From: Escherichia coli
Lineage (GTDB): Bacteria > Pseudomonadota > Gammaproteobacteria > Enterobacterales > Enterobacteriaceae
Direction: 5' to 3' (one strand)
Length of the DNA: 64,000 bases
Assembly: GCF_001677475.2 (NCBI RefSeq)
Contig: NZ_CP015229.1
Of this stretch, positions 26,909-51,418 are shown piece by piece. The notes under the pieces were generated by a model. The model was not told the DNA's origin. It ran no database searches and saw nothing but the letters and a program-made list of their open reading frames with translations. The number at the start of each line of letters is the position of its first letter. Within the stretch, counting starts at the first letter, position 1. The position numbers were made by a program, and so were the translations under genes.

Positions 26909-27006
26909 GCCTGATGCGCTACGCTTATCAGGCCTACGTGGTCCTGCAATATATTGAATTGGCAAGATTTTGTAGGCCGGATAAGGCGTTCACGCCGCAT
27001 CCGGCA
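26909..27006. repeat. REP/BIME element (two inverted REP units) between entD and fepA
   Basis: gcctgatgcgctacgcttatcaggcctac ... tgtaggccggataaggcgttcacgccgcatccggca; classic enterobacterial REP sequences. Confidence 0.75.
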
Positions 27007-37979: not shown

Positions 37980-38980
37980 GCACCACCTCGCGTTTTACGT
38001 CGCACGAGGAAGATTAGCACCGGTGCACCAATAAACGCACTGACCACAGAAACGCGCAACTCGCCGGGCACAATCACCCGCCCGATGATATCGGCAAACA
38101 GCAGCAGGGCAGGGGTGGCGAGTAGCGTGACGGGCAGCGACCAGCGATGATCGGCACCCACCAGCCAACGCGCCATATGCGGCATCATCAGGCCAATAAA
38201 GGCAATCGGGCCAACTACCGCTGTCGCACTACCACAAAGCACGGTAATCGCCAGCAGACCAATTAACTGTGTGCGCGCCACGCGACTGCCCAGCGCCGTC
38301 GCGGTGTCGCTGCCGAGGCTTAAACTGTTCAGTGCGCGGCTCAGTAATAGCGCGGTTGCTCCGGCGACCAGCACCGGGATCAGCACCACTTTTAAGGTAT
38401 GTAGATTGCGAATATCCAGCGAACCGGCTTGCCAGAAACGTAGTTGATCGTAGACGTCAGGATTAAGCAGGGCGATGCCGCTGGTCAGCCCTTCCAGCAC
38501 CGCCGCCAGCGCCACGCCCGCCAGGGTTAAACGCACCGGACTTAACTGCCCGCCGCCCTGGCTGCCGGTAAAGGCAACAATCAACGAGGCCACCAGCGCC
38601 CCGGCGAAGGCCATCGCCAGTTGTTCCTGTGCGGAAGAGTAACCAAACAGCGCCGCACCCAGCACAATGGCAAAGCTGGCTCCGGCGTTCACGCCAAGCA
38701 AGCCGGGGTCGGCAAGTGGATTTCGGGTGAGGGTTTGCATCAACGCCCCGGCAAGGCCAAGCGCGCCGCCTGCAAGTAAACCGGCAAGGGTGCGCGGCAG
38801 TCGCGCGTCGAGCACGATGGTGCAGTCGGCGCTCTGACAGGTGCCGGAGAGGGCCTCCAGCACTACGGAAGCGGGGAGTGATTTTGCCCCAATGAGCAGG
38901 CTTAATGCCGTCGCGATAATCAGTAATAACAGCAATCCGGGCACGGCAATGGCGCGTGTCACGGCAACAGAACCAGACAT
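37976..38980 (-). CDS. fepD: Ferric enterobactin ABC transporter permease FepD
   Basis: Start trimmed to MSGSVAVTRAIAV; 334 aa; 4-nt overlap with fepG start. Confidence 0.95.
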   Translation of the reverse strand: MSGSVAVTRAIAVPGLLLLLIIATALSLLIGAKSLPASVVLEALSGTCQSADCTIVLDARLPRTLAGLLAGGALGLAGALMQTLTRNPLADPGLLGVNAGASFAIVLGAALFGYSSAQEQLAMAFAGALVASLIVAFTGSQGGGQLSPVRLTLAGVALAAVLEGLTSGIALLNPDVYDQLRFWQAGSLDIRNLHTLKVVLIPVLVAGATALLLSRALNSLSLGSDTATALGSRVARTQLIGLLAITVLCGSATAVVGPIAFIGLMMPHMARWLVGADHRWSLPVTLLATPALLLFADIIGRVIVPGELRVSVVSAFIGAPVLIFLVRRKTRGGA

Positions 38981-38992
38981 ACGAACTTCCAT

Positions 38993-39017
38993 GATAATGA
39001 AATTAATTATCGTTATC
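38993..39017. promoter_or_regulatory. Putative Fur box in fepD-entS divergent promoter
   Basis: gataatgaaattaattatcgttatc between fepD start (38980) and entS start (39091). Confidence 0.5.
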
Positions 39018-39090
39018 GATCTTATTTGGATATGTTAGCATGTGCAGCCTAAGAATAGGTATTTAAAATATTTGATGGCAAGGCATTGTA

Positions 39091-40341
39091 ATGAATAAAC
39101 AATCCTGGCTGCTTAACCTCAGCCTGTTGAAAACGCACCCGGCGTTTCGCGCAGTATTCCTCGCTCGTTTTATCTCAATTGTGTCTCTGGGTTTGCTCGG
39201 CGTCGCGGTACCGGTGCAGATCCAGATGATGACGCATTCTACCTGGCAGGTGGGGCTTTCGGTGACGCTGACCGGCGGCGCGATGTTTGTTGGCCTGATG
39301 GTCGGCGGTGTGCTGGCGGATCGCTATGAGCGCAAAAAAGTGATTTTACTGGCGCGCGGCACCTGTGGCATTGGCTTCATTGGACTGTGCCTGAATGCGC
39401 TGCTGCCGGAGCCGTCATTGCTGGCAATCTATTCACTCGGTTTATGGGATGGTTTTTTCGCATCGCTTGGCGTTACGGCGCTACTGGCGGCGACACCTGC
39501 ACTGGTAGGGCGTGAAAACCTAATGCAGGCCGGGGCGATCACCATGTTGACCGTGCGTCTGGGATCGGTGATTTCGCCCATGATTGGCGGTTTACTGCTG
39601 GCGACTGGCGGCATAGCCTGGAACTACGGGCTGGCGGCGGCGGGCACGTTTATTACCTTGCTACCGTTGTTAAGCCTTCCGGCGTTGCCACCGCCACCGC
39701 AGCCGCGTGAGCATCCGTTGAAATCATTACTGGCAGGATTTCGTTTTCTGCTCGCCAGCCCGCTGGTAGGAGGGATTGCGCTGCTGGGTGGTTTATTGAC
39801 GATGGCGAGCGCGGTGCGGGTACTGTATCCGGCGCTGGCTGACAACTGGCAGATGTCGGCGGCACAGATTGGTTTTCTCTATGCGGCGATCCCGCTCGGT
39901 GCGGCTATTGGCGCGTTAACCAGCGGGAAGCTGGCACATAGCGCGCGACCAGGGTTATTGATGTTGCTCTCCACGCTGGGATCGTTCCTCGCCATTGGTC
40001 TGTTTGGCCTGATGCCGATGTGGATTTTAGGCGTGGTTTGTCTGGCGCTGTTCGGCTGGCTGAGCGCGGTTAGTTCGTTGCTGCAATATACAATGCTGCA
40101 AACGCAAACCCCGGAAGCGATGTTAGGGCGGATTAACGGTTTGTGGACGGCGCAAAATGTGACGGGAGATGCCATAGGCGCGGCGCTGCTGGGCGGTTTG
40201 GGAGCGATGATGACACCGGTTGCTTCCGCAAGCGCGAGCGGTTTTGGTTTGTTGATTATCGGCGTGTTGTTGTTGCTGGTGCTGGTGGAGTTGCGACGTT
40301 TTCGCCAGACGCCGCCGCAGGTGACAGCGTCCGACAGTTAG
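39091..40341 (+). CDS. entS: Enterobactin exporter (MFS) EntS
   Basis: 416-aa ORF, polytopic membrane protein. Confidence 0.95.
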
Positions 40342-40354
40342 CTAAAGGTGCATT

Positions 40355-40399
40355 TTCCCCTCACCCTAACCCTCTCCCCAAAGGGGCGAGGGGACTGTT
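40355..40399. repeat. GC-rich palindromic intergenic repeat, copy 1 (family name uncertain)
   Basis: ttcccctcaccctaaccctctccccaaaggggcgaggggactgtt; imperfect palindrome; near-identical element at 48749..48794. Confidence 0.6.
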
Positions 40400-40421
40400 A
40401 GTGCTCTAATTTTATGTTTTA

Positions 40422-41387
40422 TCAATCTTTTTTAAACAGTGAATTAAGTCTGTCCAGCACTTGCATGGCGCTGTAGTAATCCAGGCGGAACGTCTCGGTT
40501 CCCAGCGCATAAACCTGCTTGTTTTGTACTGCGGGCAGGTGTGCGAGCAGCGGATTAGCATAAATAGCATCGGCGTCTTTCTGATCACCGGCGAACAGGA
40601 ATAGTGACTCGCCATTTAACCCTGCAGCCAGATTTTCCCCACCAAGCTGAATGATGTCATGGCGTTTGCCCTGGCTTTGGCTGGCGTTTAAGCCTGCGGG
40701 CAACTTCGCCAGCGTAAAGCCGAGTTGTTCCAGCATCTGCCCTTGTGCTGATTCCGGCGTCCAGAGATTGGCACTGTGTGCAGCGGCAGTATAGACAATG
40801 GCAGTGATCGGCTGCGGCGGTAATTTGATTTGCTCTTTCGCCGCTGCCAGTTGCTTATCAAACTGTGCAATCCGCTTTGCCGCTTGTTTCTCATGCCCGG
40901 TAATTTCGCCAAGCTGCGTTAACAGCGACTGCCAGCTTTTGTCGTCGTAATTGATGATTAATGTCGGGGCGATGGTAGAGAGCTGATCATACAGCGCCAG
41001 CGCCGAATCACCGCCGGTTGCGCTAATTAAAATCAGATCCGGCATTTGCGCGGCAACGGCTTCTGCACTCGGTTCGCCGATATAGAGCCGTTGCAGTTTG
41101 CGTTCTGTCGCCACCTTGCTCCACTGGCGTAAAAAGCCCTGGTCATCCGCGACGCGGTTATTTGGCGTGGTCGCGCCGCTGGCGATCACCGGAGCATCAA
41201 TCGCCAGCAGTGAGCCGGTCAAGGTGACGCTGGTGGAAACAATACGCTGCGGCTGGCTTTCCAGGGTATGAGTGCCACGGCTGTCAGTAATCTGACGCGG
41301 CCAGTCGGCAGCCTGAACTACGGCTATTCCTGAAAGCAAAAGTCCTGTTAATAGAAGGGCGTTGCGGTAGAGCGAGGCGAGTCTCAC
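40422..41387 (-). CDS. fepB: Periplasmic ferric enterobactin-binding protein FepB
   Basis: 321-aa [29 protein letters not shown]... Confidence 0.95.
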
Positions 41388-41526
41388 AAATCAGCTTCCT
41401 GTTATTAATGAAGTTAATGCTTCTCATTTTCATTGTAACCACAACCAGATGCAACCCCGAGTTGCAGATTGCGTTACCTCAAGAGTTGACATAGTGCGCG
41501 TTTGCTTTTAGGTTAGCGACCGAAAA

Positions 41527-41547
41527 TATAAATGATAATCATTATTA
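41527..41547. promoter_or_regulatory. Fur box in fepB-entC divergent promoter
   Basis: ataaatgataatcattatt, close match to GATAATGATAATCATTATC. Confidence 0.65.
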
Positions 41548-41575
41548 AAGCCTTTATCATTTTGTGGAGGATGAT

Positions 41576-42751
41576 ATGGATACGTCACTGGCTGAGGAAG
41601 TACAGCAGACCATGGCAACACTTGCGCCCAATCGCTTTTTCTTTATGTCGCCGTACCGCAGTTTTACGACGTCAGGATGTTTCGCCCGCTTCGATGAACC
41701 GGCTGTGAACGGGGATTCGCCCGACAGTCCCTTTCAGCAAAAACTCGCCGCGCTGTTTGCCGATGCCAAAGCGCAGGGCATCAAAAATCCGGTGATGGTC
41801 GGGGCGATTCCCTTCGATCCACGTCAGCCTTCGTCGCTGTATATTCCTGAATCCTGGCAGTCGTTCTCCCGTCAGGAAAAACAAGCTTCCGCACGCCGCT
41901 TCACCCGCAGCCAGTCGCTGAACGTGGTGGAACGCCAGGCAATTCCGGAACAAACCACGTTTGAACAGATGGTTGCTCGCGCTGCCGCACTTACCGCCAC
42001 GCCGCAGGTCGACAAAGTGGTGTTGTCACGGTTGATTGATATCACCACTGACGCCGCCATTGATAGTGGCGTATTGCTGGAACGGTTGATTGCGCAAAAC
42101 CCGGTTAGTTACAACTTCCATGTCCCGCTGGCTGATGGTGGCGTCCTGCTGGGGGCCAGCCCGGAACTGCTGCTACGTAAAGACGGCGAGCGTTTTAGCT
42201 CCATTCCGTTAGCCGGTTCCGCGCGTCGTCAGCCGGATGAAGTGCTCGATCGCGAAGCGGGTAATCGTCTGCTGGCGTCAGAAAAAGATCGCCATGAACA
42301 TGAACTGGTGACTCAGGCGATGAAAGAGGTACTGCGCGAACGCAGTAGTGAGTTACACGTTCCCTCCTCTCCACAATTGATTACCACGCCGACGCTGTGG
42401 CATCTCGCAACTCCCTTTGAAGGTAAAGCGAATTCGCAAGAAAACGCACTGACTCTGGCCTGTCTGCTGCATCCGACCCCCGCGCTGAGCGGTTTCCCGC
42501 ATCAGGCCGCGACCCAGGTTATTGCTGAACTGGAGCCGTTCGACCGCGAACTGTTTGGAGGCATCGTGGGTTGGTGTGACAGCGAAGGTAACGGCGAATG
42601 GGTGGTGACCATCCGCTGCGCGAAGCTGCGGGAAAATCAGGTGCGTCTGTTTGCCGGAGCGGGGATTGTGCCTGCGTCGTCACCGTTGGGTGAGTGGCGC
42701 GAAACAGGCGTCAAACTTTCTACCATGTTGAACGTTTTTGGATTGCATTAA
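41576..42751 (+). CDS. entC: Isochorismate synthase EntC
   Basis: ATG at 41576 ([30 protein letters not shown]); 391 aa. Confidence 0.95.
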
Positions 42752-42760
42752 GGAGCGAGG

Positions 42761-44371
42761 ATGAGCATTCCATTCACCCGCTGGCCGGAAGAGTTTGCCC
42801 GTCGCTATCGGGAAAAAGGCTACTGGCAGGATTTGCCGCTGACCGACATTCTGACTCGCCACGCTGCGAGTGACAGCATCGCGGTTATCGACGGCGAGCG
42901 GCAGTTGAGTTATCGGGAGCTGAATCAGGCGGCGGATAACCTCGCGTGTAGTTTACGCCGTCAGGGCATTAAACCTGGTGAAACCGCGCTGGTACAATTG
43001 GGTAACGTCGCTGAACTTTACATTACCTTTTTCGCACTACTGAAACTGGGCGTTGCGCCGGTGCTGGCGCTGTTCAGCCATCAGCGTAGTGAACTGAACG
43101 CCTATGCCAGCCAGATTGAACCGGTGTTACTGATTGCCGATCGCCAACATGCGCTGTTTAGCGGAGATGATTTCCTTAATACTTTCGTCACAGAACATTC
43201 CTCCATTCGCGTGGTGCAACTGCTCAACGACGGCGGTGAGCATAACTTGCAGGATGCGATTAACCATCCGGCTGAGGATTTTACTGCCACGCCATCACCT
43301 GCTGATGAAGTGGCTTATTTCCAGCTTTCCGGCGGCACCACCGGCACACCGAAACTGATCCCGCGCACTCATAACGACTACTACTACAGCGTGCGTCGTA
43401 GCATCGAGATTTGTCAGTTCACACAACAGACACGCTACCTGTGTGCGATCCCGGCGGCTCATAACTATGCCATGAGTTCGCCAGGATCGCTGGGCGTCTT
43501 TCTTGCCGGAGGAACGGTTGTTCTGGCGGCCGATCCCAGCGCCACGCTTTGCTTCCCATTGATTGAAAAACATCAGGTGAACGTCACCGCGCTGGTGCCG
43601 CCAGCAGTCAGCCTGTGGTTGCAGGCACTGGCTGAAGGCGAAAGCCGAGCGCAGCTTGCCTCGCTGAAACTGTTACAGGTCGGTGGTGCACGTCTTTCTG
43701 CCACGCTTGCGGCGCGTATTCCCGCAGAGATTGGCTGCCAGTTACAGCAGGTGTTTGGCATGGCGGAAGGGCTGGTGAACTACACCCGTCTTGATGATAG
43801 CGCGGAGAAAATTATCCATACCCAGGGTTACCCAATGTGCCCGGACGATGAAGTGTGGGTTGCCGATACTGAAGGAAATCCACTGCCGCAAGGGGAAGTC
43901 GGACGCCTGATGACGCGCGGTCCGTACACCTTCCGTGGCTATTACAAAAGCCCGCAGCACAATGCCAGCGCCTTTGATGCCAACGGTTTTTACTGTTCCG
44001 GCGATCTGATCTCTATTGATCCCGACGGTTATATCACCGTGCAGGGGCGCGAGAAAGATCAGATCAACCGTGGCGGCGAGAAGATCGCAGCCGAAGAGAT
44101 CGAAAACCTGCTGCTGCGCCATCCGGCGGTGATCTACGCCGCACTGGTGAGCATGGAAGATGAGCTGATGGGCGAAAAAAGCTGTGCTTATCTGGTGGTA
44201 AAAGAGCCTCTACGCGCGGTGCAGGTGCGTCGTTTCTTGCGTGAACAGGGTATTGCCGAATTTAAATTACCGGATCGCGTGGAGTGTGTGGATTCACTTC
44301 CGCTGACGGCGGTCGGGAAAGTCGATAAAAAACAATTACGTCAGTGGCTGGCGTCACGCGCATCAGCCTGA
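42761..44371 (+). CDS. entE: 2,3-dihydroxybenzoate-AMP ligase EntE
   Basis: 536-aa ORF; adenylation-domain protein. Confidence 0.95.
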
Positions 44372-44384
44372 AGGAGAGAACACG

Positions 44385-45241
44385 ATGGCTATTCCAAAAT
44401 TACAGGCTTACGCACTGCCGGAGTCTCACGATATTCCGCAGAATAAAGTCGACTGGGCCTTTGAACCGCAACGTGCCGCGTTGTTAATCCATGATATGCA
44501 GGACTATTTTGTCAGCTTCTGGGGCGAGAACTGCCCGATGATGGAGCAGGTGATCGCGAATATTGCGGCACTACGCGACTACTGCAAACAGCACAATATC
44601 CCGGTTTATTACACCGCCCAGCCGAAAGAGCAGAGCGATGAAGATCGGGCGCTGTTGAATGATATGTGGGGACCGGGCCTGACCCGTTCGCCGGAACAGC
44701 AAAAGGTGGTGGATCGCCTGACGCCAGATGCCGACGACACGGTGCTGGTGAAGTGGCGCTACAGCGCGTTTCATCGTTCTCCGCTGGAGCAAATGCTCAA
44801 AGAGAGTGGACGTAACCAGCTGATTATTACCGGGGTATATGCCCACATTGGCTGTATGACCACCGCAACCGACGCATTTATGCGCGATATTAAACCGTTT
44901 ATGGTGGCGGATGCGCTGGCCGATTTCAGCCGTGACGAGCATTTGATGTCGCTGAAATATGTGGCTGGACGTTCTGGCCGGGTGGTGATGACCGAAGAAT
45001 TACTGCCAGCACCTATCCCCGCCAGCAAAGCGGCGCTGCGTGAGGTTATCCTGCCGTTGCTGGACGAGTCCGATGAACCGTTCGATGATGACAACCTGAT
45101 CGACTACGGTTTGGATTCGGTGCGCATGATGGCGCTGGCGGCGCGCTGGCGCAAAGTACATGGCGATATCGACTTTGTCATGCTGGCGAAAACCCCAACC
45201 ATTGATGCCTGGTGGAAACTGCTCTCCCGCGAGGTGAAATA

Positions 45242-45242
<1 letters not shown>
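44385..45242 (+). CDS. entB: Isochorismatase / aryl carrier protein EntB
   Basis: 285-aa ORF; stop overlaps entA start (TAATG). Confidence 0.95.
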
Positions 45243-46404
<1,162 letters not shown>

Positions 46405-46584
46405 GCCCGACAGAATTAAATGAGATTGCAGGAAAACTCGGTTAACGGAGTGATCGAGTTAACATTGTTAAGTTAAATATTGGTTTCAACTCCGATTTAC
46501 ATGGTTGCTGTGTTGTTAAATTGTACAAAGATGTTATAGAAACAAAATGTAACATCTCTATGGACACGCACACGGATAACAACT

Positions 46585-48690
46585 ATGAACAAATCAGGGA
46601 AATACCTCGTCTGGACAGTGCTCTCTGTAATGGGAGCATTTGCTCTGGGATACATTGCTTTAAATCGTGGGGAACAGATCAACGCGCTGTGGATTGTGGT
46701 GGCGTCGGTCTGTATCTATCTGATCGCTTATCGTTTTTATGGTCTGTATATCGCCAAAAATGTGCTGGCGGTTGACCCGACGCGTATGACGCCAGCGGTG
46801 CGCCATAACGACGGGCTGGATTATGTGCCGACGGACAAGAAAGTGCTGTTCGGTCACCATTTTGCGGCCATTGCCGGAGCTGGTCCGTTGGTGGGGCCGG
46901 TGCTGGCAGCGCAAATGGGCTACCTGCCGGGGATGATCTGGCTGCTTGCTGGGGTGGTTCTCGCCGGTGCGGTACAGGATTTCATGGTGCTGTTTGTTTC
47001 CACGCGCCGTGACGGTCGCTCGCTGGGTGAGCTGGTCAAAGAAGAGATGGGGCCAACCGCCGGGGTGATTGCGCTGGTTGCCTGCTTTATGATCATGGTC
47101 ATCATCCTTGCCGTGCTGGCGATGATCGTGGTGAAAGCCCTGACCCATAGCCCGTGGGGAACGTATACCGTTGCGTTCACCATTCCGCTGGCGCTGTTCA
47201 TGGGGATCTACCTGCGCTATCTGCGTCCAGGGCGTATTGGCGAAGTGTCGGTCATTGGCCTGGTGTTCCTGATTTTCGCCATTATCTCTGGCGGCTGGGT
47301 GGCAGAAAGTCCGACCTGGGCACCGTACTTTGACTTTACCGGCGTGCAGCTGACCTGGATGCTGGTGGGTTACGGCTTCGTGGCGGCGGTGCTGCCGGTG
47401 TGGTTGCTGCTGGCCCCGCGTGACTACCTCTCAACCTTCCTGAAAATCGGGACTATTGTCGGTCTGGCGGTAGGCATTCTGATTATGCGCCCGACGCTGA
47501 CCATGCCTGCTCTGACCAAATTTGTTGATGGCACTGGCCCGGTATGGACCGGTAACCTGTTCCCGTTCCTGTTTATTACTATCGCCTGTGGCGCGGTGTC
47601 TGGCTTCCATGCGCTGATCTCTTCTGGCACCACGCCGAAGATGCTGGCGAACGAAGGGCAGGCGTGCTTTATCGGCTACGGTGGGATGTTAATGGAATCC
47701 TTCGTGGCGATTATGGCGCTGGTTTCCGCCTGTATCATCGATCCGGGCGTTTACTTCGCAATGAACAGCCCAATGGCGGTGCTGGCTCCGGCAGGGACGG
47801 CGGATGTGGTTGCTTCTGCCGCGCAGGTGGTGAGTAGCTGGGGCTTTGCGATTACCCCGGATACGCTAAACCAGATTGCCAGCGAAGTGGGTGAACAGTC
47901 GATCATTTCCCGTGCGGGCGGTGCGCCGACCCTGGCGGTGGGGATGGCCTACATTCTGCACGGTGCGCTGGGCGGCATGATGGATGTGGCGTTCTGGTAT
48001 CACTTCGCCATTCTGTTTGAAGCACTGTTTATTCTGACGGCGGTGGATGCAGGTACGCGTGCTGCGCGCTTTATGTTGCAGGATCTGCTGGGCGTGGTGT
48101 CTCCGGGCCTGAAACGGACAGATTCTCTGCCTGCTAACCTGCTGGCAACGGCGCTGTGTGTGCTGGCGTGGGGCTACTTCCTGCATCAGGGCGTGGTCGA
48201 TCCGCTGGGCGGTATTAACACCCTGTGGCCGCTGTTTGGTATTGCCAACCAGATGCTGGCAGGGATGGCGCTGATGCTCTGTGCCGTAGTGCTGTTCAAG
48301 ATGAAACGTCAACGTTACGCCTGGGTGGCGCTGGTGCCAACGGCCTGGCTGCTGATTTGTACCCTGACCGCAGGCTGGCAGAAAGCGTTCAGCCCGGATG
48401 CGAAAGTGGGCTTCCTGGCCATTGCTAATAAGTTCCAGGCAATGATCGACAGCGGTAATATTCCGTCGCAGTATACTGAGTCACAACTGGCGCAACTGGT
48501 GTTCAACAACCGTCTGGATGCCGGGTTGACCATCTTCTTTATGGTGGTTGTGGTGGTTCTGGCGCTGTTCTCGATTAAGACGGCACTGGCGGCATTGAAA
48601 GAGCCGAAGCCAACGGCGAAAGAAACGCCGTATGAGCCAATGCCGGAAAATGTCGAGGAGATCGTGGCGCAGGCGAAAGGCGCGCACTAA
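46585..48690 (+). CDS. cstA: Carbon starvation protein A (peptide/pyruvate transporter)
   Basis: 701-aa polytopic membrane ORF. Confidence 0.95.
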   Translation: MNKSGKYLVWTVLSVMGAFALGYIALNRGEQINALWIVVASVCIYLIAYRFYGLYIAKNVLAVDPTRMTPAVRHNDGLDYVPTDKKVLFGHHFAAIAGAGPLVGPVLAAQMGYLPGMIWLLAGVVLAGAVQDFMVLFVSTRRDGRSLGELVKEEMGPTAGVIALVACFMIMVIILAVLAMIVVKALTHSPWGTYTVAFTIPLALFMGIYLRYLRPGRIGEVSVIGLVFLIFAIISGGWVAESPTWAPYFDFTGVQLTWMLVGYGFVAAVLPVWLLLAPRDYLSTFLKIGTIVGLAVGILIMRPTLTMPALTKFVDGTGPVWTGNLFPFLFITIACGAVSGFHALISSGTTPKMLANEGQACFIGYGGMLMESFVAIMALVSACIIDPGVYFAMNSPMAVLAPAGTADVVASAAQVVSSWGFAITPDTLNQIASEVGEQSIISRAGGAPTLAVGMAYILHGALGGMMDVAFWYHFAILFEALFILTAVDAGTRAARFMLQDLLGVVSPGLKRTDSLPANLLATALCVLAWGYFLHQGVVDPLGGINTLWPLFGIANQMLAGMALMLCAVVLFKMKRQRYAWVALVPTAWLLICTLTAGWQKAFSPDAKVGFLAIANKFQAMIDSGNIPSQYTESQLAQLVFNNRLDAGLTIFFMVVVVVLALFSIKTALAALKEPKPTAKETPYEPMPENVEEIVAQAKGAH

Positions 48691-48748
48691 AGTCAGAGTG
48701 AGGGGGGAATGTTGGCGAATGTTGGCGAAAGTTGGCATGGTGCCGAGG

Positions 48749-48794
48749 GTTCCCCCTCACCCTAACCCTCTCCCCGGTGGGGTGAGGGGACTGA
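48749..48794. repeat. GC-rich palindromic intergenic repeat, copy 2
   Basis: gttccccctcaccctaaccctctccccggtggggtgaggggactga; near-identical to 40355..40399; preceded by three 10-mer direct repeats (gaatgttggc) at 48718..48747. Confidence 0.6.
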
Positions 48795-48853
48795 CCGAGC
48801 GCGTTGATAGCTATTAATGCACTCTCTCAGCAATCTGATTACCGGAGGTATTG

Positions 48854-49051
48854 ATGTTTGATTCACTGGCAAAAGCCGGAAAATATTTAGGTCAGGCGGC
48901 GAAGCTGATGATTGGTATGCCTGATTACGACAACTATGTCGAACATATGCGGGTTAACCATCCCGATCAAACGCCGATGACCTACGAAGAGTTTTTCCGT
49001 GAGCGGCAGGACGCGCGCTACGGTGGAAAAGGTGGCGCGCGCTGCTGCTAA
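48854..49051 (+). CDS. ybdD: Small protein YbdD (DUF466)
   Basis: 65 aa [33 protein letters not shown]...; downstream of cstA. Confidence 0.85.
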
Positions 49052-49060
49052 ATTTGTACG

Positions 49061-50149
49061 TCAGGCTTTAAACGATTCCACTTTTTCGAACGCTGCACGC
49101 AACGTATCTGGTGTCAGCGTGACTGGCAGGTAATGAATGGACTCCACCGGACGTAAGGTGTGGGCAATCACTTTGTCGATCTCCGCCTGATTATTGATAT
49201 CCACTTCCAGCTCCGCCAGCGTAGTCGGCAGATGAAAACGTTGATACGCCCCGGTTAATTGCGCCAGCACATCATCCTGACCCAGCAAGGCGCTTTGCAC
49301 CAGAATGCCGTAGGCGACTTTGGTGCCGTGGAGAAACTTCTCGGTTTGCGGCAAAACGGTCAGACCGTTATGCACGGCATGGGCCGCCGCCACACGCGTA
49401 AAACGATCGCCCAGACCACCGACCATCCCACCACCAGCAATAATAGCATCCACCACATCGCAAAATGATTGCGTTAACTGTTGTTTTTGCTGATCGCTCA
49501 GCGCCTGTTCGCTACTGTTTAACAAGACGTCGCGAATGGCCTGCGCATTATTGATCCCCAGACGCACGGTTAGCGGCAAGGTTTCTGGTTGCGGAGCCAG
49601 CACCACCGCTTCATACCATTTCGCCAGCGTGTCACCGATCCCCGCCAGCAGATATTCTTGCGGCGCATTGAGGATAATCTCTGGCTCCACCAGCACCATA
49701 AAATTGGCGTCGTCGAAAATCTCATAATGCAGCGCCTGTCCGGCATCGTTATACCAGACGGAGAGCGGTGTCCAGGCGGCGCAGGTGGCGGCGATCGTCG
49801 GAACGGCAACAAACGGCAGACCGAGACGGCGGGCGAGGGCTTTCGCGGTGTCGAGCAGTGCGCCGCCGCCGACGCCAATCACCACGCTGCGATCGTCACC
49901 GGACTCAGCCGCCAGGTGCTGTACATCGCTTTCGCTGCAATGACCGCGAAACAAAATATGCTTTGCACCAGGCAGTTGAAACGCTGGTGGAAGTCTGATT
50001 TGCGCCGCAGCAATGGCGCGTTCGCCGTAGATCCACACCGCGCGAGAAAGCTGTTCATCAGTGAAAAAGTCGTGCAGGTGATTGAAACTTCCTGGATGTG
50101 AAAAGTAGTTAGCCGGGCCGACGACGACGCGGATAGGATTGTGAGGCAT
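49061..50149 (-). CDS. ybdH: Iron-containing (glycerol dehydrogenase-like) alcohol dehydrogenase family protein YbdH
   Basis: 362-aa ORF. Confidence 0.85.
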   Translation of the reverse strand: MPHNPIRVVVGPANYFSHPGSFNHLHDFFTDEQLSRAVWIYGERAIAAAQIRLPPAFQLPGAKHILFRGHCSESDVQHLAAESGDDRSVVIGVGGGALLDTAKALARRLGLPFVAVPTIAATCAAWTPLSVWYNDAGQALHYEIFDDANFMVLVEPEIILNAPQEYLLAGIGDTLAKWYEAVVLAPQPETLPLTVRLGINNAQAIRDVLLNSSEQALSDQQKQQLTQSFCDVVDAIIAGGGMVGGLGDRFTRVAAAHAVHNGLTVLPQTEKFLHGTKVAYGILVQSALLGQDDVLAQLTGAYQRFHLPTTLAELEVDINNQAEIDKVIAHTLRPVESIHYLPVTLTPDTLRAAFEKVESFKA

Positions 50150-50257
50150 GTTGTGTTGTCCTTATTGTTTTATTTAGACATCTAAACGTCTTGATTGCCA
50201 AATACTAGCATCGTGTTATAGTGCCTTCAACACGCAACTTCGTCAGGCACAATAAAA

Positions 50258-51418
50258 ATGACAAATAACCCTCTGATTCCACAAAGCAAACTTCCACAAC
50301 TTGGCACTACCATTTTCACCCAGATGAGCGCGCTGGCGCAGCAACACCAGGCGATTAACCTGTCGCAAGGCTTTCCTGATTTTGATGGTCCGCGCTATTT
50401 ACAGGAGCGGCTGGCGTACCACGTTGCCCAGGGGGCAAACCAATACGCGCCCATGACCGGCGTGCAGGCCTTGCGCGAGGCGATTGCTCAGAAAACGGAA
50501 CGTTTGTATGGCTATCAACCAGATGCCGATAGCGATATCACCGTAACGGCAGGGGCGACGGAAGCGTTATATGCAGCGATTACCGCATTGGTGCGCAATG
50601 GTGATGAAGTGATCTGCTTTGATCCCAGCTATGACAGTTACGCGCCCGCCATCGCGCTTTCGGGGGGAATAGTGAAACGTATTGCACTGCAACCACCGCA
50701 TTTTCGCGTGGACTGGCAGGAATTTGCCGCATTGTTAAGCGAGCGCACCCGACTGGTGATCCTCAACACCCCGCATAACCCCAGTGCAACTGTCTGGCAG
50801 CAGGCTGATTTCGCCGCTTTGTGGCAGGCAATTGCCGGGCACGAGATTTTTGTCATTAGCGATGAAGTTTACGAGCACATCAACTTTTCACAACAGGGCC
50901 ATGCCAGCGTGCTGTCGCATCCGCAGCTGCGTGAGCGGGCGGTGGCAGTTTCTTCATTTGGCAAGACTTATCATATGACCGGCTGGAAAGTGGGTTATTG
51001 CGTTGCGCCAGCGCCCATCAGTGCCGAAATTCGCAAGGTACATCAGTATCTGACCTTTTCGGTAAATACCCCGGCGCAACTGGCGCTTGCCGATATGCTA
51101 CGTGCAGAACCTGAGCATTATCTTGCGTTACCGGACTTTTATCGCCAGAAACGCGATATTCTGGTGAATGCCTTAAGTGAGAGTCGGCTGGAGATTTTAC
51201 CGTGCGAAGGTACATACTTTTTGCTGGTGGATTACAGCGCCGTGTCTACGCTGGATGACGTTGAGTTTTGCCAGTGGCTGACGCGGGAGCACGGTGTAGC
51301 GGCGATTCCGCTGTCGGTGTTTTGCGCCGATCCCTTCCCCCATAAACTGATTCGTCTCTGTTTTGCCAAGAAGGAATCGACGTTGCTGGCAGCAGCTGAA
51401 CGCCTGCGCCAGCTGTAG
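50258..51418 (+). CDS. ybdL: PLP-dependent methionine aminotransferase YbdL
   Basis: 386-aa ORF; class I aminotransferase. Confidence 0.9.
   Translation: MTNNPLIPQSKLPQLGTTIFTQMSALAQQHQAINLSQGFPDFDGPRYLQERLAYHVAQGANQYAPMTGVQALREAIAQKTERLYGYQPDADSDITVTAGATEALYAAITALVRNGDEVICFDPSYDSYAPAIALSGGIVKRIALQPPHFRVDWQEFAALLSERTRLVILNTPHNPSATVWQQADFAALWQAIAGHEIFVISDEVYEHINFSQQGHASVLSHPQLRERAVAVSSFGKTYHMTGWKVGYCVAPAPISAEIRKVHQYLTFSVNTPAQLALADMLRAEPEHYLALPDFYRQKRDILVNALSESRLEILPCEGTYFLLVDYSAVSTLDDVEFCQWLTREHGVAAIPLSVFCADPFPHKLIRLCFAKKESTLLAAAERLRQL

Follow-up and report, generated by a model that had tools for sequence, protein, structure and literature searches.

BoxC intergenic repeats downstream of entS and cstA in Escherichia coli and the association of their family with DUF559 nuclease-like genes

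The analyzed window, a 64-kb stretch of Escherichia coli DNA, contains two short GC-rich palindromic repeats, each located just downstream of a plus-strand gene. The first copy (40353..40403) lies between the stop codons of the convergent genes entS (CDS 39091..40341, plus strand) and fepB (CDS 40422..41378, minus strand), 11 nt downstream of the entS stop and with its tail 18 nt from the fepB stop. The second copy (48749..48799) is located between cstA (CDS 46585..48690, plus strand), whose stop is 58 nt upstream, and the downstream ybdD (48854-49051). The window has only two exact matches to a 22-nt core (CCCTCACCCTAACCCTCTCCCC), one in each copy (40358-40379 and 48754-48775) and both on the plus strand, and no chance match to it was obtained in 100 dinucleotide-preserving shuffles even when three mismatches were allowed. 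Alignment of the two sites revealed similarity over 51 nt (~40353-40403 and 48749-48799) that is gone in the flanks, and a scan of the entire window for the generic three-block architecture described below found these two copies and no others. A sequence-only reading of the window had reported two near-identical GC-rich palindromes 3' of plus-strand genes, at 40355-40399 and 48749-48794. The shared core, the site alignment and the preceding stops of entS (40341) and cstA (48690) bear this out, and the coordinates were essentially right except that they left off a conserved 10-nt tail (ACTGTTAGTG in copy 1 and ACTGACCGAG in copy 2).

Read on the C-rich plus strand, both copies are built in the same way: two C-rich blocks, A and B, are separated by the spacer TAA, and block B is followed by a 3-nt loop, the G-rich block C and the 10-nt tail. 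In copy 1, a T-run (40353-40356) is followed by block A (CCCCTCACCC, 40357-40366), the spacer (40367-40369), block B (CCCTCTCCCC, 40370-40379), the loop AAA (40380-40382), block C (GGGGCGAGGGG, 40383-40393) and the tail (40394-40403). Copy 2 comprises block A (CCCCCTCACCC, 48752-48762), the spacer (48763-48765), the same block B (48766-48775), the loop GGT (48776-48778), block C (GGGGTGAGGGG, 48779-48789) and the tail (48790-48799). Block C may pair with either block A or block B. In copy 1 one mismatch is left either way, while block C of copy 2 is the perfect complement of its block A. The inverted arms of both copies are 10–11 nt long, 91–100% complementary and 17 nt apart. We rejected an element that would reach ~30 nt further in the 3' direction: the entS copy and the PCN033 gldA-yijF copy share GCNCT..TTTTAT..TTATCA in this extension, but it is absent from the cstA copy and from other family members and was therefore excluded.

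Judged by their sequences, both copies are ordinary members of an already known repeat, BoxC (Bergler 1992; Bachellier 1996/1999), whose members were listed by Petrillo et al. (2008, PMC2267715). A tentative assignment to a Box C-like family, made in the sequence-only reading, was correct, as both copies align over ~50 nt and nearly base for base to the 22 K-12 members in the supplementary FASTA file of that study. Members eco:5, 11 and 14 have exactly the core of copy 1, and copy 2 differs at two positions from eco:7, its orthologue. BoxC elements are GC-rich imperfect palindromes of ~50–56 bp that occur in intergenic regions as 20–30 dispersed copies per genome. Both copies in the window agree with this description in sequence, length, palindromic structure and intergenic, dispersed location, and nothing essential sets them apart, although the entS/fepB copy occupies a rare, strain-specific site that is missing from K-12.

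The same element has since been re-described three times. Hoyne et al. (2000) and Hoyne and Maher (2002) described it as the PIT element, Holder et al. (2015, PMC4666352) as the TMECO intrastrand triplex motif and Kaplan et al. (2016, PMC5100583) as the HPG1/HPG2 G-quadruplex-hairpin-duplex switch. Copy 1 has the one pyrimidine and two purine blocks and the type A loop TTA of PIT/TMECO elements, and its minus strand (CCCTCGCCCCTTTGGGGAGAGGGTTAGGGTGAGGGG) is identical to TMECO 7, 11 and 15 (Table 1 in PMC4666352), which belong to type A and contain one mismatched triplet; we refer to this as the ‘mismatch’ subtype. Copy 2 is also of type A, with TTA as second loop, but in this copy the perfect partner of the single pyrimidine block is the third block and not the second. 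The invariant HPG1 core GGGAGAGGGTTAGGGTGAGGG is present in both copies. Their minus strands (40357..40379 in copy 1 and 48752-48775 in copy 2) carry the G-quadruplex/purine-triplex motif GGGGAGAGGGTTAGGGTGAGGGG with four runs of at least three G and the loops AGA, TTA and TGA, a motif that Kaplan et al. (PMC5100583) tie neither to BoxC nor to any gene. Rfam covariance models, applied to positions 38000-51000 with a permissive E-value, yielded only chance-level matches (E 0.18–6, far below the gathering scores). The repeats had also been held to be distinct from REP elements, and indeed their sequence differs: the only match to the REP consensus (CGYCTTATCMGGCCTAC) in the window is at 26972-26988 on the minus strand, and the REP/BIME pattern (..GCCGGATGCGGCG..CGCCTTATCCGGCCTAC) occurs at neither BoxC site. 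This single REP match is presumably the element between entD and fepA that the sequence-only reading had mentioned.

With the 47-nt element as query, BoxC was detected in 5425 of 5426 complete E. coli genomes at a median of 19 places per genome (range 1–34). Hence, the motif is not confined to two sites per genome but constitutes a dispersed family. According to our tally of Table S2 of Holder et al. (PMC4666352), the 18 K-12 loci comprise seven convergent, nine tandem and two divergent intergenic regions. Sixteen of the 18 are located 3' of at least one gene end, mostly 11–53 nt past the stop codon, and in the tandem regions the element usually follows the upstream stop at this distance. The placement at gene 3' ends noted in the window is thus typical of the family in K-12, with an orientation relative to the nearest gene end of ~50:50. 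Plasmids carried 365 of the ~95,000 BoxC places in E. coli assemblies. Holder et al. (PMC4666352) reported no association with mobile elements or plasmids.

The ent/fep region of the window (38000-44000) showed a best identity of 97.6% over 6 kb among the 5426 complete E. coli genomes. This value is low for E. coli, and on this comparison the window probably stems from a somewhat divergent Escherichia lineage or from a relative outside this genome collection. In K-12, the stops of entS and fepB are only 3 bp apart and no BoxC follows entS, whereas the window contains at this site a strain-variable segment of ~86 nt (40342..40428) that holds copy 1. The segment also lengthens FepB by three residues (..RLNSLFKKD* in the window, encoded by the fepB 3' end at 40422-40433, versus ..RLKALF* in K-12). 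The entS/fepB copy with its flanks was found in 38 of the 5426 genomes, which formed groups at 97.2–98.3% and at 90.1% identity to the window. In practice, this copy is thus a rare lineage marker that in addition alters the C-terminus of FepB. The insert includes ~35 nt of extra non-BoxC sequence, which fits recombination better than precise transposition.

Two further BoxC sites in this stretch also differ between the window and K-12. In K-12, the Fur-regulated divergent control region between fepB and entC is enlarged by an insert of 177 bp, in which BoxC copies of types A and B form an inverted doublet (TMECO 7/8). The window is devoid of this insert, and its intergenic region measures 197 bp (41379-41575) versus 374 bp in K-12 (positions 4512-4885 of the K-12 segment L001). 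Between cstA and ybdD, BoxC is present in both, but K-12 has an additional REP (TGTAGGCCGGATAAGGCGTTCACGCCGCATCCGGCA) directly after the BoxC (L001 12100-12182), and unrelated AT-rich sequence occupies the corresponding position in the window (48800-48853). Thus, three BoxC-associated length polymorphisms occur within 10 kb. In the filled/empty alignments of the window and K-12 at entS/fepB and fepB-entC, no target-site duplication was definable, as the boundaries were ambiguous and showed only short TTAA/TAA-like repeats. Upstream of copy 2, a 10-bp tandem repeat (GAATGTTGGC; 48707-48736, between the cstA stop and the BoxC) has three copies in the window and two in K-12. The preceding stretch GTCAGAGTGAGGGGG (48692..48706, plus strand), 45 nt upstream of copy 2, is 87% complementary to block A of this copy. 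By analogy with the doublet layout at other BoxC loci, it is possibly the remnant of an inverted partner, which would make the copy 2 site a decayed doublet.

Comparing E. coli strains, Holder et al. (PMC4666352) observed that BoxC loci are more rearranged than control intergenic regions, and the differences around the BoxC sites of the window fit this unusual variability. One explanation would be that the G-rich strand adopts a triplex or G-quadruplex structure, or acts as a hairpin-G4-duplex switch, and thereby causes local instability or regulates the neighboring genes. Besides the rearrangements seen among strains and the three length polymorphisms in 10 kb, this explanation draws on the exact TMECO type A/HPG1 motif in both copies and on the formation of triplex and G-quadruplex structures in vitro (CD and NMR in Holder et al. 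2015, PMC4666352; CD in Kaplan et al. 2016, PMC5100583). We nevertheless regard it as unlikely, because in vivo footprinting did not support a stable triplex (discussion in Holder et al. 2015, PMC4666352), the same study found no link of the motif to gene function, distance or orientation, and instability is predicted equally well by a mobile or nuclease-targeted repeat. In addition, the repeats that flank DUF559 genes in other organisms (see below) change their sequence (for example CCTTCCCC/GGGGAAGG) yet retain the hairpin, so that some of these lineage variants lose the canonical runs of at least three G.

REP elements protect upstream mRNA in some operons. The sequence-only reading had proposed that the repeats in the window may act as mRNA stabilizers or terminators, in which case the hairpin would shield the entS, fepB and cstA mRNAs from 3' exonucleases or terminate transcription. 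The location of both copies 11–58 nt past stop codons is compatible with such punctuation of the RNA, as are the 16 of 18 K-12 loci downstream of at least one gene end and the closeness to 3' ends that was also observed by Kaplan et al. (PMC5100583). A transcribed copy would fold into a G/C stem of 10–11 bp in either orientation, and the predicted RNA hairpins are stable both ways (−22 to −32 kcal/mol), but the folding z-score of the entS copy is modest (−1.4 versus shuffles) and the commonest subtype retains a mismatch in both alternative stems. The terminator function did not hold up. A scan of both strands found no site with a hairpin and a T-run at either copy: on the plus strand the T-run lies 5' of the hairpin, and on the minus strand an A-run follows it, so that the GC-rich hairpin directly followed by a U-tract of an intrinsic (Rho-independent) terminator is absent. 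A promoter consensus scan of both sites revealed nothing relevant. Reporter tests by Hoyne and Maher (2002), as cited in PMC4666352, showed neither promoter or terminator activity nor an effect on RNA polymerase in vivo. As the U-tract is absent and the published tests were negative, the terminator reading is not supported. The predicted hairpin may still stabilize mRNA. As an account of the family, we find RNA punctuation improbable, since some copies are located in promoter regions, such as the K-12 fepB-entC doublet, and since it leaves unaccounted for both the identical 22-mer across phyla and the bracket around DUF559 genes that are described in the following.

The exact 22-mer was found on at least 120 stretches when one genome per species was considered. 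Among the matches listed, the hosts represented Gamma-, Alpha-, Beta- and Deltaproteobacteria, Verrucomicrobia, Chloroflexi, Firmicutes and archaeal metagenome-assembled genomes (MAGs). In these listed matches, the core was always followed by a variable loop and then by GGGG[AC]GAGGG, which indicates that the B:C hairpin is kept while the loop varies, and two or more copies, nearly always inverted, were present at 64 of 120 loci. A unit from Pseudomonas sp. dw_612 is an inverted doublet of type A and type B of ~200 nt and has the tail ACTGACCGAG in common with E. coli. The only ORFs inside larger Pseudomonas doublets were spurious, repeat-encoded ones. The exact core was also seen on two archaeal MAG contigs (L048 and L066, binned as Methanomicrobiaceae and Micrarchaeota, respectively), the second of which contains a BoxC-bracketed DUF559 gene as well. 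These contigs reflect either cross-domain transfer or mis-binning.

Inspection of the space between paired copies at BoxC-selected loci identified, in five unrelated genomes (L016, L053, L066, L067 and L107), a small ORF tightly bracketed by BoxC. All five ORFs encode proteins of the family PF04480 (DUF559; E 1e-31 to 1e-43). Using a DUF559 core profile from which the repeat-encoded termini had been trimmed, we retrieved ~8000 homologues. Among the best 106 non-E. coli homologues of this set, 21 had a C-terminus of exactly PSP, which corresponds to CCC TCA CCC TAA and thus to block A and the spacer, the latter serving as the stop codon. In the same 106 proteins, BoxC-type peptides were present in the last 25 residues of 51 versus five in the core. 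When ten proteins, eight of which had mostly been picked for the absence of the PSP/BoxC-peptide signature, were traced to their contigs, nine had BoxC-like elements at their flanks. Where the host was richer in AT, the flanking repeat was a diverged variant of the same architecture. The one traced locus that has no BoxC-like flank (L135, 210-1872) is immediately preceded by a transposase gene of the ISL3 family.

The association was quantified at 80 metagenome loci, which were chosen solely by the core peptides IRFWNNE and [IV][IV]E[LVI]DG[GS]QH, taken from a ten-sequence core alignment, with BoxC content ignored, and which were scanned with a generic three-block detector. A three-block element was found within 250 nt of the DUF559 gene at 70 of the 80 loci and on both sides of the gene at 50. 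Per kb, there were 3.7 elements on the upstream and 4.3 on the downstream side of the gene, none within the gene and 0.039 in the far flanks (233 kb in total), which is a 104-fold enrichment near the gene over the far flank (binomial p = 9e-118). The elements also showed polarity, with 59 in the minus (G-rich) versus 13 in the plus orientation upstream and 57 in the plus (C-rich) versus 24 in the minus orientation downstream of the gene, and this arrangement matches that of four of the five K-12 doublets. Both ends of a DUF559 gene carry the same lineage-specific repeat variant. As a statistical association, the inverted BoxC bracket around DUF559 genes is essentially certain.

The DUF559 gene of E. 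coli K-12 is ycjD, whose stop codon (..RSPSP*) falls inside a shortened BoxC. It is followed by a duplicated fragment of the ycjD 3' end and then by an inverted full BoxC, which is TMECO 9 and adjoins fabI/envM, the gene where BoxC was first noticed. The duplicate (~60 nt, GGAGACGGTGCTGGAGAATATTC..CTGAACCG..) between the truncated and the full BoxC (K-12 segment L123, 1541-1907, minus strand) looks like the footprint of a rearrangement at the repeat. In E. coli, ycjD has BoxC on its 3' side only. In an enterobacterial orthologue (L217), all three blocks of BoxC are preserved and the stop codon lies in the loop of the repeat. The gene occurs in phylogroups A, B1 and C, and eefRABCD is found instead in B2, D, E, F and G (PMC12817139). 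A chimeric ycjD-BoxC query detected ycjD in 3377 of the 5426 genomes. Among 58 E. coli chromosomes that were sampled evenly, the ycjD-positive strains had a median of 21 BoxC places (13–30) and the ycjD-negative strains 5.5 (2–20), a comparison that is confounded by phylogeny. B2-type strains had 2–8 BoxC places and O157:H7, which is devoid of ycjD, had 14, showing that BoxC copies persist without the gene. The correlation is suggestive and agrees with a nuclease-driven element, but it is confounded by phylogroup and we do not rely on it.

NCBIfam names the protein merely ‘DUF559 domain-containing protein’. In PDB, the core profile matched 3hrl, an endonuclease-like protein (E 3e-37), and, with E 2e-5, 3r3p, which is the catalytic domain of a homing endonuclease from a mobile intron. 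The match to Vsr (1cw0) was weak. That members of the DUF559 family can be active nucleases follows from the Caulobacter DUF559 protein VsrA, which is induced in the SOS response and damages DNA in vivo (PMC12907096). YcjD-type proteins have the same fold and E/D...H active-site region as Vsr endonuclease and the I-Bth0305I homing endonuclease family. They differ from these in that they are encoded by free-standing genes for ~110–130 amino acids, which are located neither inside introns nor beside a cytosine methyltransferase. Vsr enzymes recognize T/G mismatches. As a speculation, this may be relevant to the commonest BoxC subtype, in which pairing of the outer blocks on the G-rich strand would leave a G-T mismatch.

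With moderate confidence, we favor the interpretation that BoxC copies are non-coding, non-autonomous pieces of a family of selfish DUF559-nuclease elements. The full-length unit would be a small gene for a YcjD-type DUF559 endonuclease with a Vsr-like PD-(D/E)XK fold, placed between inverted BoxC copies. Doublets, in which inverted copies are 15–140 nt apart, would represent gene-less derivatives, and singletons, including both copies in the window, would be solo ends; we infer that these solo copies descend from full elements. The DUF559 nuclease would act on BoxC DNA and drive or maintain its spread. Copies may accumulate just past stop codons, where insertions are tolerated, and their gain and loss would make intergenic regions differ between strains. 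Several observations count against such a selfish unit, namely the absence of a definable target-site duplication, the ~35 nt of non-BoxC sequence in the entS insert, genomes that have BoxC copies without ycjD, the 3'-only BoxC of ycjD, the repeat-free locus L135 and the absence of a mobile-element association in Holder et al. (2015, PMC4666352). We hold the joint claim that a YcjD-type nuclease acts on BoxC DNA and that this link was previously undescribed with slightly less confidence, at little better than an even chance. No earlier report of a link between BoxC and DUF559 or ycjD was found in our literature search, which included papers citing Holder et al. (2015) and had most subscription journals outside its coverage, and the novelty of the link is probable rather than certain.

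The converse scenario, in which older BoxC doublets were the insertion targets of free-standing, homing-endonuclease-like DUF559 genes, would account for genes that lie exactly between two inverted copies with their start and stop embedded in them, for the relationship of DUF559 to a mobile-intron homing endonuclease and for gene-less doublets of the same polarity in E. coli and elsewhere, but it is the least probable of the explanations considered here, as it leaves the origin and the cross-phylum spread of BoxC unexplained and as the lineage variant shared by both ends suits a single unit, although homing into a local doublet predicts the latter likewise.

The selfish-element interpretation has its closest parallel in REP/BIME elements, REPINs and their RAYT proteins. 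These, too, are short palindromes scattered behind genes and frequently paired as inverted doublets, their sequence co-varies with the lineage, and in the REPIN-RAYT system the same repeats flank a small, usually single-copy gene of nuclease type, as three-block elements do at 70 of the 80 DUF559 loci with the 104-fold enrichment reported above. The differences are that the repeat sequences are unlike, that the partner of BoxC is a PF04480 DUF559 protein with a Vsr-like PD-(D/E)XK domain and not a Y1 (HUH) transposase of the IS200/IS605 type, and that the exact BoxC core is common to many phyla, which is not the case for REPs. Because of the different sequence, the different protein class and the cross-phylum core, BoxC is an analogue and not a member of the REP/RAYT system. 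The gene-less doublets also resemble MITEs in having inverted ends with the end polarity of the gene-bearing unit, but no target-site duplication was identified at the alignable sites, and neither a DDE nor another known transposase is involved.

BoxC is a classic E. coli intergenic repeat that has been unexplained since 1992 and has been described four times, each time under another name and solely as a structural DNA motif. Its bracketing of DUF559 genes supplies a candidate enzyme, which makes the 30-year-old question of its nature directly testable, and likewise offers a testable function for the very large DUF559 protein family, which has no known function. If the interpretation is true, BoxC and DUF559 would form a second repeat-enzyme system of the REP/RAYT kind, in which a Vsr-like PD-(D/E)XK nuclease takes the place of the HUH transposase. 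A link to a nuclease could also explain why BoxC loci are hotspots of intergenic strain variation and why E. coli of phylogroup B2, which lack ycjD, have few BoxC copies. A DUF559 gene with a BoxC bracket (L129, 2001-2324; L131, 1501-1830) is located inside a DMSO-reductase-type operon of two related metagenomic organisms, between the genes for the catalytic (molybdopterin) subunit and the Fe-S/DmsC subunit, and looks like a selfish insertion within this operon.
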